Below, piece after piece: positions 9,535 through 54,219 of a DNA stretch of 64,000 nt. Each line of letters starts with the position of its first letter. Within the stretch, counting starts at the first letter, position 1. Made by a program: the position numbers and the translations under genes. The stretch lies in assembly GCA_964016885.1 (NCBI GenBank), contig OZ024755.1:6510001-6574000 (forward strand), in the 5' to 3' direction. The notes beneath the pieces are model-generated. The model had not been told where the DNA came from. It searched no databases and was given only the letters and a program-made list of their open reading frames with translations. Origin of the DNA: Eledone cirrhosa (taxonomy: Eukaryota).

Positions 9535-9721
9535 TAACGAAGGAGTTGTGGTAAGGAACCAGATGGACCATAACACACCAGAGTACTCAATACTTAGGGT
9601 AGTATTGTGGATAATAGGAAAATGAATGACACCCGACGGAGGAGCTCCTGCCGTTTCGACGGCTATTCCAGAAATAGCCGTCGAAACGACTTGAGCTCTG
9701 CCGTCGGAGTCATACATTTTC

Positions 9722-9725
<4 letters not shown>
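9535..9725 (-). mobile_element. Fold-back element copy 1 (112-bp palindrome plus ~80-bp unique tail) in (TA)n
   Basis: 9614-9725 is self-complementary around loop CCAGA; the whole unit is the reverse complement of 36818-37010. Confidence 0.85.
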
Positions 9726-11450: not shown

Positions 11451-11718
11451 CTATCTAGGGCGGGTAAAATTCCCGAGATCCATGGACGAGTTCTCTCCAG
11501 CGGACTCTGTCCCTCATTATCGCTGCCATAACCTGCGTCTCCAAGAGACCAGTGTCTGTCCTTAGGACATCAACATATGTTAACCTCGGTCTTCCTCTTC
11601 CAGTGTGTCCATGCAGGGGGTTCCACAGGAGCACTGAATGCAGTGTCAACACTGGATGTCGGTGAGCATGTCCAGCTAACCTCAGTTTCCTCTGTGCTAC
11701 TCTTGAGCTGACTTTTGG
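11451..11718 (-). mobile_element. RTE-clade LINE 3' fragment
   Basis: Encodes LLWNPLHGHTGRGRPRLTYVDVLRTDTGL...RDRVRWRELVH; TAGA tail; matches 40120-40704. Confidence 0.9.
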
Positions 11719-16365: not shown

Positions 16366-16385
16366 TGTGTGTATATATATATATA

Positions 16386-16590
16386 TTTGTTTTGCGAGGT
16401 TTTTGATATGAAATCGTGTGTCGAAACATATATTGTTATACTTGGGGAGGCTCATATTGTTGTAATAATATTGCCAGAATTAATAACTGAACACACTCTC
16501 TGTTTGGTTGGTTTTCGCTTCTGTATCTTTTATATCAGTTATATATCTATATGCTTCACAGTTGGTCAGTCAATGGTAATACTTCATCAA
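16386..16590 (+). mobile_element. Second copy of the 1471-1905 element family
   Basis: TTTTGCGAGGTTTTTGATATGAAATCGTGTGTCGAAACATATATTGTTATACTTGGGGAGG... matches the reverse complement of ~1730-1887. Confidence 0.8.
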
Positions 16591-36817: not shown

Positions 36818-37008
36818 ATAGGGAAAAGTATGACCCCGACGGCAGAGCTCAAGCCGTTTCGACGGCTATTTCAGTCCAGAAATAGCCGTCAAAACGGCTT
36901 GAGCTCTGCTGTCGGGTCATACTTTTTCCTATTTCCCACTCTACTACTCTAAGTATTGAGTACTCTGCTGCGTTATGGTCCATCTGGTTCCTTACCACAA
37001 TTCTTTTG

Positions 37009-37010
<2 letters not shown>
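36818..37010 (+). mobile_element. Fold-back element copy 2 (115-bp palindrome plus tail) in (TA)n
   Basis: 36818-36932 is self-complementary around loop CAGTCCAG; the tail matches the reverse complement of 9535-9610. Confidence 0.85.
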
Positions 37011-39082: not shown

Positions 39083-39114
39083 CTTATATAGAATATAAAT
39101 TTATATATATTATA

Positions 39115-39148
<34 letters not shown>

Positions 39149-39207
39149 CATATTTATATAGAATATATATATATTCATACTTATATAGAATATAAATTTA
39201 TATATAT

Positions 39208-39238
<31 letters not shown>

Positions 39239-39373
39239 TCATATTTATATAGAATATAAATTTATATATATTATATATATATATTATATATATATATTTA
39301 TATTTATATATTCATATTTATATAGAATATATATATATTCATACTTATATAGAATATAAATTTATATATATTA

Positions 39374-39407
<34 letters not shown>

Positions 39408-39500
39408 CATATTTATATAGAATATATATATATTCATTCTTATATAGAATATAAATTTATATATATTATATATATATATATTTATATTTATATATTCATA
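39083..39500. repeat. AT-rich minisatellite built from TTATATAGAATATAAATTTATATA blocks
   Basis: The motif ATATAGAATAT recurs repeatedly at semi-regular spacing. Confidence 0.8.
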
Positions 39501-39642
39501 TATATATATATATATATATATATGCTCTGTAGTATACTAGTTATCCTATATTGAGCTAAAACGACACTGTCATACCAAGGGCAATATATATACATGTATA
39601 GGTATATTGATATATTTGTCAACGAAATATATATGTATATAT

Positions 39643-39911
39643 ATACGATATTAACAAATAGAAACTATATTTATAAAACCATATTTATTTCATTATACAT
39701 ATTTCAAGGACACCGAGTTAAATTATGGTGTGCTTTCATCAACAGTAATGGTTGCATTTTTTAAGGGTATGTCAATATTTATTTATAAAACTGATCTATA
39801 TTATATTTTATCTGATGGAAGCACACCATAATTTAACTTGGTGTCCTTGAAATATGTATAATGAAATAAATATGGTTTTATAAATATAGTTTCCATTTGT
39901 TAATATCGTAT
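39643..39911. mobile_element. Inverted-repeat element (99-bp arms, 71-bp spacer) carrying a hammerhead
   Basis: 39643-39741 is the reverse complement of 39813-39911 with about 3 mismatches. Confidence 0.85.
39781..39885 (+). ncRNA. Minimal type I hammerhead motif
   Basis: TATTTTAT-CTGATGG-AAGCACACCA..TGGTGTCCTT-GAA-ATATGTAT-A-ATGAAATA. The inverted copy preserves TGATGA. Outer ATTTATAAAAC/GTTTTATAAAT pairing. Confidence 0.7.
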
Positions 39912-40091
39912 GTTTACTCCAAATACTTGTTGAGTGCTTTATAATTGTTATAAAAATATTTGCTTGTTGTATCCCAACAATTTAAATAGAACTTTTGCAT
40001 ATATATATATATATATATACATTCATATATATATATATATATTATGGAATACTGTTGGCTTCTTGCTACAATAATTTCTATACTTGTCATT

Positions 40092-40119
<28 letters not shown>

Positions 40120-40122
<3 letters not shown>

Positions 40123-40704
40123 TTGGGAACAAAGATTGGGAATACGGAAGAAGATGTGACCGAGAGGAAGAGCAAAGCCTGGGCGGCGTGCAACAGCTTG
40201 AGATCGGTGTGGAAGTCGGATCTTCGTAAAGATCAGAAGATCCGTCTCTTCTTTGCTGTAGTGGGGTCTGTCCTGCTGTACGGGACTGAGACTTGGACAC
40301 TGACCAAGAAACTCACTCAGATGGTGGATGGGTGCTACACGAGAATGCTGAGGATGGCTCTGAACATTAATCAGTATACACTGAGGATGAAGAACCCAGA
40401 GCTGTACGGGTGCCTCCCAAAAGTCAGCTCTAGAGTAGCACAGAGGAGACTGAGGTTAGCTGGACATGCTCACCGACATCTAGAGTTGGCACTGCACTCA
40501 GTGCTCCTGTGGGAGCCTCTGCATGGACACACTGCAAGAGGAAGACCGATGTTAACATATATTGATGCAGTAAGGACAGACACTGGTCTCTTGGAGACGC
40601 AGGACATGGCAGCGATAATGAGGGACAGAGACCGCTGGAGAGAACTCGTCCATGGATCTTTGGAATTTTACCCGCCCCAGATAGATAGGTAGATAGATAG
40701 ATAG
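40120..40704 (+). mobile_element. RTE-clade LINE, 5'-truncated (RT C-terminal region, open frame) with (TAGA)n tail
   Basis: YLG...KAWAACNSLRSVWKS...KIRLF...VLLYGTETWTLT...RRLRLAGH...GRP...W: canonical RTE ORF2 C-terminus. The stop of sibling copies (CCCTAG/CCTTAG) is CCCCAG here. Confidence 0.92.
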
Positions 40705-48467: not shown

Positions 48468-48471
<4 letters not shown>

Positions 48472-48671
48472 AACACAAAACATAACTACTCCATTACCAA
48501 AGGTTTCTGGATCACAGACGATAATAATATCGTTCGTCAGACAGAGATGTTTTAGATAAAAGGTATCTTTTATCTATAACATCTCTGTCTGACGAACGAT
48601 CCAGACGTATATTATTATCGTCTGTGATCCAGAAACCTTTGGTAATGGAGTAGTTATGTTTTGTGTTGTTC
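48468..48671. mobile_element. Fold-back palindrome (~95/105-bp arms, 4-bp centre) carrying a hammerhead
   Basis: Left arm is the reverse complement of the right arm except for a 10-bp gap and about 1 mismatch; follows (TA)n(GA)n. Confidence 0.88.
48576..48657 (+). ncRNA. Type I hammerhead motif
   Basis: CTCTGT-CTGACGA-AC-GATC-CAGACG..CGTCTG-T-GATC-CA-GAA-ACC-TTT-GGT-A-ATGGAG; outer ATAAC/GTTAT pairing; GUA site. The base of stem II is unpaired. Confidence 0.68.
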
Positions 48672-48743
48672 ACTTTCTAATTAAATAGCTCTGTTCTATA
48701 TATAGAGCACTCTTTTTTCCTTCGCTTTTCCTTTGGAATTACC

Positions 48744-48831
<88 letters not shown>

Positions 48832-48961
48832 GTTAAACAATATTCAATGATTATGTCAAAGAATGAGTTTTACAGTAGATTGGAAGCACTCAACGGTAAA
48901 TATAATTTTCTGGAGTTATTAATATTAAAATATAAGTATTAATAAAATAGATGTTCTTTTG

Positions 48962-49031
48962 ATCAATTACATTTTATTATACATATTTCGGATGTACAAC
49001 AGTACGTCCTCATCAGACAAAATATAATGAT
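48962..49031 (-). ncRNA. Minimal type I hammerhead ribozyme, apparently intact core
   Basis: Minus: ATTATATTTTGT-CTGATGA-GGACGTAC-TGTT-GTACATCC-GAA-ATATGTAT-A-ATAAAATGTAAT. 12-bp stem I, 7/8-bp stem II, self-complementary stem III, AUA site. Confidence 0.8.
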
Positions 49032-49128
49032 ACATGACATACCCTGAGATGTTAAATGGTTAAGATTTAATCAAGATAGTCTACCTTGATTAAATCTTAA
49101 CCATTTAATATCTCAGGGTATGTCATGT

Positions 49129-49198
49129 ATCATTATATTTTGTCTGATGAGGACGTACTGTTGTACATCCGAAATATGTATAATAACATGTAATTGAT
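49129..49198 (+). ncRNA. Mirror hammerhead copy with one stem I mismatch
   Basis: CTGATGA at 49144-49150, GAAA at 49171-49174; ATAACAT instead of ATAAAAT. Confidence 0.75.
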
Positions 49199-50354
49199 CA
49201 AAAGAACATCTATTTTATTAATACTTATATTCATTTCTATCTATATTCTAAAGTTATTTTAATGTTCGAATCCCGTTTTAAATACTTGAAATGTGTAAAA
49301 TATTGATGTTCTTGGAGAGGTTTAGTAACACGTGATATTGTCTCTATCGAAGCCGAAAGGACTAAATGTAAAGTTAACCTTACCAGGATTGAAAGCCAGA
49401 GCACAGAGAGCGAGAATACTGCAAATATTTTAATTCAACGCTCTAACGGCTTTCACATATCTGCAGTCCTCAGCAGTGATAAGTGATTAATACTCCATTG
49501 TAGGTTAGAGGTCGATTTTTATGAAATCAGAACTGATGAGGGCTGACATATATTCTAGTCTTGGGTTGAAGCCTAATCTTTCAAATGAGGTTTTGGCAAT
49601 ATTATATATGCGAGGTCACCATGGGAGATCAATGTGCTTTATGAGGCCTAGCATTTGTTGATCTCAAAACGAATTTAATGTATTATTTATGAGTAAGGAA
49701 AGCATAGTATAGGATTATTTCTTTAACGTGTGTAGTGATAATACATCTACTGTTGAAAGGGATTAATTTGTCATATCTTCATGAAATGGTGATCTCAGCG
49801 TCATTGTTCAGAAGCTTACAAGAAGTGAAAATTGATATCATTTGCATAGGAGCGAGTGTTGTTAGAAGTAAGAGCACGAAGATCGTACAACCTAAACTAG
49901 TGTGACTGTTGGTGTATAATTTTCAGGACCAGAATGATACATATGATATAGAGAAGGCTTAGGGGGCTATATATACCGTATGTTTTAATAGTTATTGTGG
50001 TTTAGCCCTTGGTCAAAATTGATCTAGCAGTCCTACCTTCAAAGATATTCGAAGTAAGTCTATGTCCACAGAGATTCATAACATTGAAAGGCAAGATTTG
50101 AGGGAGATTTTAGTTTTATTTCTAGCAGATTGGGTGTTCACCTAGAAGACCAGACATTGACTCAAATAACTTTAACATAATTTTGATAACGAGCCTAAAA
50201 TGAGTGTAATATGTCTTAGAGAAAATATAAGAGTGCTTGTGTATGTGTATGTGTATGTATATACGTATATACGTATGTGAGTGGTTCCGTGTGTGTCTGT
50301 GTGTATGTGCGTATGTGAGTGTTTCCGTGTGTGTATGCACGCGTTTGTATGCAC

Positions 50355-51795: not shown

Positions 51796-51999
51796 TATAT
51801 TACTGAGTCTCCATGTGGCATCATCAGATACTCATACAATTATGAGGTGTAGTTATGCAAGTATGGTGATATGCGGCTGGTGATGTATTACCATCTTCGT
51901 GTTATGCGAGCGAGCAACACTAAGCTGGTAATACATTGTCAGTGACATACCTGCATGCTTGCATAACTACACCTTACACCTATATATATATATATATAG

Positions 52000-52135
52000 G
52001 TTAACATATGTTGATGCCCTGAGGACAGACACTGGTCTGTTGGAGATGCTGGATATGGCAGCGATAATGAGGGACAGAGACCGCTGGAGAGAACTCGTCC
52101 ATGGATCTCGGGAATTTTACCCGCCTTAGATAGAT
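52000..52135 (+). mobile_element. RTE LINE extreme 3' fragment
   Basis: Nearly identical to ~40551-40685; TAGA tail; (TA)n on both sides. Confidence 0.9.
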
Positions 52136-52144
52136 ATATATATA

Positions 52145-52218
52145 TAGGAGGCAAAGTATAGCCATGAGGTGTGGTTACCTATAAATATATAAATATTATA
52201 TACATATATATGTATTTA

Positions 52219-54140: not shown

Positions 54141-54144
<4 letters not shown>

Positions 54145-54219
54145 GTTGTAACATAAATTCCCGCTGTTGCCATAACACTTGTTGATAACAAAACAGCGGG
54201 AATTAATGTTACAACCCAA
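54141..54219. mobile_element. 79-bp mariner-type MITE
   Basis: 28-bp TIRs TTGGGTTGTAACATAAATTCCCGCTGTT / AACAGCGGGAATTAATGTTACAACCCAA with 1 mismatch, inside (TA)n. Confidence 0.88.

Follow-up and report, generated by a model that had tools for sequence, protein, structure and literature searches.

Hammerhead ribozymes in the pLTRs of Penelope-like elements (PLEs) are described as minimal, with a palindromic helix III, and as present in thousands of solo copies that are inactive as monomers (PMC4209133). The same source describes pairs of minimal hammerheads on opposite strands, 100–700 bp apart. PLE insertions are reported in which an inverted 5'-truncated copy lies beside the forward one, with a tail at one end and a bias towards microsatellites (PMC8557442), and in which the inverted pLTR is shorter than the direct one, with 5' palindromes and microhomology junctions (PMC3846280). 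The protein of a Poseidon PLE nicks both strands of AT-rich DNA in vitro, and reverse transcription starts from two internal RNA sites, which define the tail (PMC11167929). According to that study the RNA used is mostly uncleaved, the hammerhead works with protein assistance, and insertion does not require it. What the hammerhead does for PLEs is presented as still open in the field (PMC8557442, PMC11167929).

We analysed an inverted repeat at 39643–39911 of a 64,000-nt stretch of genomic DNA (the whole of which is called the window here). The locus is very probably a fold-back truncated pair of a hammerhead-bearing repeat, set in a TA microsatellite and likely left by one PLE insertion, and the end of one arm within the core box of the ribozyme is probably due to chance. 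Membership of the PLEs is likely, by analogy with the systems above.

Arms, flanks and repeat family

The inverted repeat has two arms of 99 nt each, 39643–39741 and 39813–39911, which are complementary at 96 of 99 positions and are separated by a 71-nt spacer; the three mismatches lie at plus-strand positions 39818, 39839 and 39893. The forward copy (39742–39911, plus strand) represents the pLTR-like 3' part of a repeat family: it begins 70 nt ahead of the core and reaches the position where most family copies have their 3' end. The mirror arm (39643–39741, minus strand) is an inverted 5'-truncated copy. Its inner end is TGATGA of the core, as an earlier note on this DNA had stated, and it keeps A at core position 9 where the forward copy reads CTGATGG (39812–39818), a difference that the note had also read correctly. 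The mirror has U in place of C3, and the 5' side of stem I is missing; against the foreign sequence upstream of it, stem I pairs at four of eight positions and at neither of the two nearest the core. The mirror arm therefore cannot fold into a hammerhead in cis. As ribozymes, both arms are probably dead, the forward one through A9G and the mirror through the missing C3 and stem I.

The copies meet at a junction (39740–39754, plus strand), likely through a 2-nt microhomology at 39740–39741, the first bases of a weak 4-bp hairpin (DNA fold −0.6 kcal/mol), and the forward copy begins there. At its other end, only the forward arm continues into a tail-like 3' extension (39912–39998, plus strand), recognised from the family depth table and loose ends. 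This is family sequence for at least 64 nt, through 39975, the end of the compared stretch, and the extension probably measures about 87 nt and reaches the (AT)n at 39999. The outer end of the mirror arm is the main 3' end of the family and adjoins TA-rich DNA. That left flank (39624–39642) and the (AT)n microsatellite on the right (39999–40042) are the likely target; no target-site duplication was discernible at 39624–39642.

The window is AT-rich (GC 0.20–0.39 per 2 kb), with dense microsatellites and interspersed repeats, and appears to be animal intergenic or intronic DNA. Pfam searches of 66 complex ORFs in the window gave none above threshold and no PLE protein, and none of the 66 matched an RT or GIY-YIG family that could be linked to the repeat. 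Such an absence is expected, because the copy is 5'-truncated.

Several other repeats were observed in the window. A higher-order 97-bp repeat of 4.6 copies, based on a TA microsatellite, occupies 39086–39523, 120 nt left of the element. Just downstream, 40075–40700 is a C-terminal fragment of a non-LTR retrotransposon-like ORF, with copies at 11451–11718 and 51998–52147; the ORF at 40075–40689 had one sub-threshold DUF6451 match, and an atlas look-up pointed weakly to eukaryotic EN-RT-like clusters. A 94-bp inverted repeat (1475–1568/1749–1842, 98.9%), with a one-arm extension and TA flanks and a copy at 16385–16545, has the fold-back-plus-tail layout without a CTGANGA box, and may be a MITE or a PLE that lacks the hammerhead. 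A TA-flanked element that carries a GC-rich hairpin (about 110 nt) at one end is present twice (84%), at 9537–9725 and 36818–37009, and short, TA-flanked, MITE-like palindromic elements lie at 54142–54218 and 51845–51974. Self-comparison also gave a SINE-like family of about 185 bp, whose copies, at least 10 in number, are 76–95% alike and occur in both orientations (5404, 5852, 19574, 20151, 22180, 31786, 43549, 51445, 53736 and 57091).

Parts of the stretch were present in 13 of 17 listed public runs (10 organism labels, 9 studies). Only three runs held at least half of its words, the best of them 55% of the sampled words, and there was no RNA run among those listed as containing the stretch (17 listed runs). 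Four runs (X1, X15, X4 and X6) were compared over 39742–39975, X15 being reduced-representation (RAD) data. Family copies were found on 5100 contigs in X1, in 29258 of 12.5 million reads in X15, and on 63 contigs in X4 and 4 in X6. This is a high-copy repeat family with thousands of copies, and the 39-kb locus is one decayed copy of it. At 39818 the base was A in 767572 of 767614 depth in X1, in 2855 of 2916 reads in X15, and throughout X4 and X6. Because A makes up 98–99.99% of coverage there, A9G is private to the 39-kb copy: A is ancestral at position 9, and the forward G is private decay.

The common variants of the family respect the hammerhead fold. The double changes A39820G with T39847C and C39824T with G39843A occurred in phase in loose ends before 39849 (three contigs in X1 and one in X6), and these loose ends also carried a mismatch at 39826/39841. 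A39823G and A39810G produce G-U pairs, the frequent G39856A makes helix III a perfect palindrome, and the loop of stem II varies freely; these are the variants listed, and there are 86 further ones. Family 3' ends lie mostly at 39901–39911, where depth falls, many running into (TA)n (X1 and X4), and a minority of copies extends past this main end to at least 39975. Further loose ends were seen before 39744, 39747 and 39750 in X4/X6.

The hammerhead motif and its relative at 49 kb

The forward copy contains a type I hammerhead motif (39804–39868, plus strand), recognised by a strict descriptor and by structure comparison. Stem I (39804–39811/39861–39868) has eight pairs, the core CTGATGG (39812–39818) bears the private A9G, and stem II (39819–39848) has 3 + 6 pairs around a C.C mismatch. 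The GAAA box (39849–39852) is followed by a self-complementary helix III (39852–39859) with two G-U pairs, and the motif predicts cleavage after 39860, at UA. Core positions follow standard hammerhead numbering. C3 and G8 are numbered as in PMC11167929. The helix III duplex is predicted to be weak (−2.2 kcal/mol), and its palindrome would permit dimers.

The strict type I descriptor, which was composed after the motif had been seen, matched twice in the window (39812, plus strand; 49016, minus strand) and in none of 200 locally shuffled windows. The boxes CUGANGA, GAAA and UH stand in order in the family and in the 49-kb motif, and the 39-kb copy departs from them by A9G in the forward arm and by the absence of C3 in the mirror. 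Stem II is closed by an A-U pair at 39 kb and by a G-C pair at 49 kb, without a bulge in either. The unpaired base 9.1 and the G10.1-C11.1 pair (more than 80% in the published consensus) are thus not present at 39 kb. We regard them as a consensus trait and not as absolute, because Fig. S3 of PMC4209133 has rows of PLE-linked motifs with A10.1-U11.1 closing pairs or no bulge, as far as the columns of that figure can be aligned correctly.

Free minimum-energy folding of the 39-kb motif was no better than that of shuffles (z −0.47; 57/200), which is expected because the motif is of the dimer type, and it was not counted as support. Rfam gave no hammerhead among 7 matches at E ≤ 10 in 39600–39960 or among 34 in 48480–49300, the matches being hairpin and microsatellite artefacts only, below threshold. 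For the forward copy alone, stem II had a predicted pair probability of 0.87 and stem I one of 0.23. An RNA running through both arms is predicted to form a long hairpin (−146 kcal/mol), so the ribozyme fold would be excluded in it, and the modelled pairing probability of stems II and I fell below 1e-21. Most hammerhead core mutations strongly lower activity (PMC3088659), and our literature search found no direct activity measurement for A9G. A monomer with A9 restored is itself expected to be inactive, as PLE minimal hammerheads are described as needing dimers or protein (PMC4209133, PMC11167929), and for the same reason its inactivity would not refute the fold.

A distant relative of the element lies at 48929–49231, a 151-nt near-perfect fold-back whose minus strand carries the motif intact at 49016; both arms begin about 64 nt upstream of a CTGATGA core. 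The earlier note had linked the two elements through a shared GAAATATGTATAAT and a TATTTTRT stem I. Both sequences are indeed shared by the two elements. At 49 kb stem I is intact in the minus-strand arm alone; the plus-strand arm has a U.C mismatch there and fails the strict scan.

The kinship proposed in that note also held, in that the two hammerhead-type folds are related and their stem II changes are compensatory. Its account of stem II itself needed revision. The stem does remain paired despite its changes, but ACACCA/TGGTGT covers too little of the actual 39819–39848, and the two stems are not 'completely different', as they align in register. Five of seven stem II pairs are changed on both sides and all seven stay paired, a covariation between two independent sequences from which the structure was also derived. 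The mismatch falls at the same fourth position in both elements, and the shared structure is 92.6% paired, compared with 26–59% when slid by 1–3 columns. These five double-sided pairs, together with the double changes within the family, bear out the suggestion that changed sequence with kept structure supports an RNA fold. The fold is well supported and of a known class, with clean stem II covariation between what would be two hammerhead families in one genome.

Whole forward copies of the 39-kb and 49-kb elements were more alike than expected, only 1 of 500 shuffles scoring as high. Similarity outside the core was not significant by segment (57, 267 and 74 of 500 shuffles), and the two elements are therefore distant relatives that the ribozyme mainly connects. 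An 11-nt motif upstream of the core, AGGGTATGTCA (39764–39774, plus strand), is common to both, and is found at about 49114–49124 upstream of the 49-kb core. It is not significant alone, the upstream segments being those for which 57 of 500 shuffles score as high. It resembles a splice signal, which is of note in that PLE pLTRs can carry an intron.

A third hammerhead fold-back was observed at 48468–48745, with CTGACGA at 48589 (plus strand) and 48540 (minus strand). Its sequence is unrelated, and it was not alignable with the 39-kb element (241/500 shuffles). A single substitution and, in stem II, an indel of 10 nt distinguish its arms, with a 10-bp hairpin at the junction; the mirror adjoins (GA)n, and the forward arm is about 74 nt longer, reaching (AC)n. 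Pattern scans for the hammerhead motif gave 0 matches in viral contigs and 20 in metagenome contigs. The latter were rejected as chance, stem I having three or fewer pairs in 20/20, and none was used; BLAST gave them only two weak AT-rich hits.

Origin of the fold-back and position of its breakpoint

As in PLEs, an inverted truncated copy stands at the 5' end of the forward one, and 11 opposite-strand joints occur in other family copies among the 15 joints listed out of 17; the list also gives 23 loose-end rows out of 334. A PLE-like optional tail is likewise present on one arm, with family sequence past 39911 in the forward arm only. Following published PLE biochemistry, a GIY-YIG endonuclease would have nicked both strands of AT-rich DNA, and reverse transcription would have started at two internal RNA sites, which lie about 50 and about 140 nt beyond the cleavage site on its 3' side. 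An uncleaved RNA would have served as template, which fits the locus because each arm runs through the predicted cleavage site without a break. One cDNA would have ended at a length of about 99 nt; its partner, primed on the opposite strand from the second start site, would have continued to the small hairpin that lies about 70 nt ahead of the core. The two truncated cDNAs would then have joined head to head at their 5' ends via the 2-nt microhomology, an outcome that matches the observed structure exactly. Conservation of the fold would reflect selection on the RNA of the parent element, whose ribozyme may cleave as a dimer via the palindromic helix III or with protein help, and not a function of the 39-kb copy, which would have decayed after insertion.

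The earlier note had placed the breakpoint exactly at the CUGAUGA box. The inner end does lie in CUGAUGA, but inside the box, after C3, and with a 2-nt uncertainty (arm end at U4, G5 or A6), because the CA at 39740–39741 fits upstream family sequence too: in at least four loose-end rows (5 contigs, X4 and X6) the family likewise reads CA just before 39742. Cleavage was rejected as the cause, since the breakpoint is 48 nt upstream of the predicted site, which is intact in both arms. Among the 11 opposite-strand joints listed, 0 of 22 joint ends fell in 39800–39818 or 39858–39864, with 0.9 expected in the box if ends were uniform. The count of 0/11 excludes only hot spots at or above about 30% (P = 0.02), a 10% hot spot giving P = 0.31. 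Within the window, one of six inner arm ends is in a box, and at least one would be there by chance with a probability of 0.22 under a uniform model; in the two further hammerhead fold-backs of the window, both arms have their turning point ahead of C3, at a distance of about 64 nt in one and about 24 nt in the other. A preferred inversion point inside CUGAUGA was not found reported in the literature. With no listed joint end in the box, an intact cleavage site and these chances among six inner ends, a special significance of the breakpoint was not supported, and its position in the ribozyme core is probably coincidence, the test being small.

A non-random inner end within a PLE origin would arise if reverse transcriptase stalled on leaving stem II of a folded or protein-bound hammerhead, so that arms ended in or just upstream of the core. 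We consider this unlikely. The inner end does fall in the box, and depth across 39782–39813 steps up near the 5' edge of stem I, the increase being about 24% for X15 and about 3-fold for X4. However, depth is nearly flat in X1 (over 39790–39829 too), the step overlaps a variable, indel-rich zone (39792–39803) where divergence and clipping can explain it, none of the 22 listed joint ends lies in 39800–39818, and five of the six inner ends in the window are elsewhere. The depth step may reflect divergence, or copies starting near stem I. At the other end, 7 of the 22 listed joint ends fell at 39742–39748, in the weak hairpin 39740–39754, five of them on the first base of the compared stretch, where they may be an edge effect. 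A general rule in which PLE inversion junctions are directed by the template, the forward cDNA stopping at the hairpin about 70 nt upstream and the opposite one stalling as it leaves stem II of the uncleaved hammerhead, is similarly doubtful. If true, the hammerhead would block or terminate reverse transcription and would not serve for cutting, so that a motif which insertion in vitro can do without would gain a role. Arm ends piled up at the core genome-wide would point to such a non-cleavage role in ending reverse transcription. The locus alone matters little, as one decayed copy among thousands in a known element class.

It is about as improbable that the locus is a truncated inverted monomer pair of a non-autonomous retrozyme, a tandem hammerhead repeat mobilised by PLE enzymes, a reading compatible with PLE origin. 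A type I hammerhead, high copy number and the lack of an ORF in view would suit a retrozyme, and retrozymes have been reported as derived from PLE pLTRs and as occurring as monomers (bioRxiv 10.64898/2026.07.22.740005; PMC7229834). Against this, there is no head-to-tail unit repeat at the 39-kb locus, the only joints listed that go back are of 23 and 48 nt, and the long stem II with its variable loop is closer to PLE variants than to canonical retrozyme hammerheads.

Inversion after insertion, by template switching in replication or by repair, or an assembly artefact, is very unlikely. The exact 39-kb junction was absent among the joints listed, in runs that at best held the share of sampled words given above, and such structures are known to trouble assemblies (PMC8557442). 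Yet the three differences in 99 positions between the arms show that the mirror is no echo at the level of reads. Other copies have similar strand-switch joints (11 listed), and the outer end of the arm is the family's main 3' end adjoining TA. That the locus is a host gene for a functional ribozyme or for a hairpin RNA can practically be set aside: a transcript through both arms would be a long hairpin that could feed small-RNA pathways, but A9G is a private change of this copy, the mirror lacks a core, no Rfam family reached threshold, and the predicted pairing of stems II and I in that RNA is vanishingly low, as given above. A single truncated PLE insertion thus remains the preferred reading.

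Comparison with known systems

The non-LTR retrozymes described in PMC7229834 and bioRxiv 10.64898/2026.07.22.740005 are, like this family, short non-coding high-copy repeats with a type I hammerhead; unlike them, the 39-kb locus is not a head-to-tail tandem. The PAc Poseidon of Anolis (PMC11167929) resembles it in having 3' ends that lie about 100 nt past the core-box ATG, two 3'-end classes, an AT-rich target and a template uncleaved at the hammerhead. The ORF of PAc starts at stem II, whereas a reading from the 39-kb core ATG stops after 11 codons, and an ORF from there was rejected.

The inverted-pLTR units of Penelope, Poseidon and Neptune (PMC3846280; PMC8557442, Fig. 2) share the head-to-head arrangement, the shorter inverted copy and the one-arm extension, as well as a short palindrome and microhomology at the 5' junction and TA-microsatellite flanks. 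The 39-kb locus differs from those units in lacking an ORF and in an extension of at least 64 nt, against a published 30–40 nt.

Compared with the PLE-pLTR hammerheads of Cervera and De la Pena (2014, PMC4209133), the 39-kb motif has no unpaired base after position 9 and closes stem II with A-U and not G-C; the fourth-position stem II mismatch is conserved here, stem I has eight pairs, and the 39-kb copy carries A9G. The likenesses to the hammerheads described there are the type I form, the order CUGANGA...GAAA...UH, a long stem II, a palindromic helix III, a U-rich 5' flank and an AU-rich 3' flank. As in the metazoan EN+ PLEs of the same source, there are thousands of solo or opposite-strand copies, and covarying families are found together in one genome.
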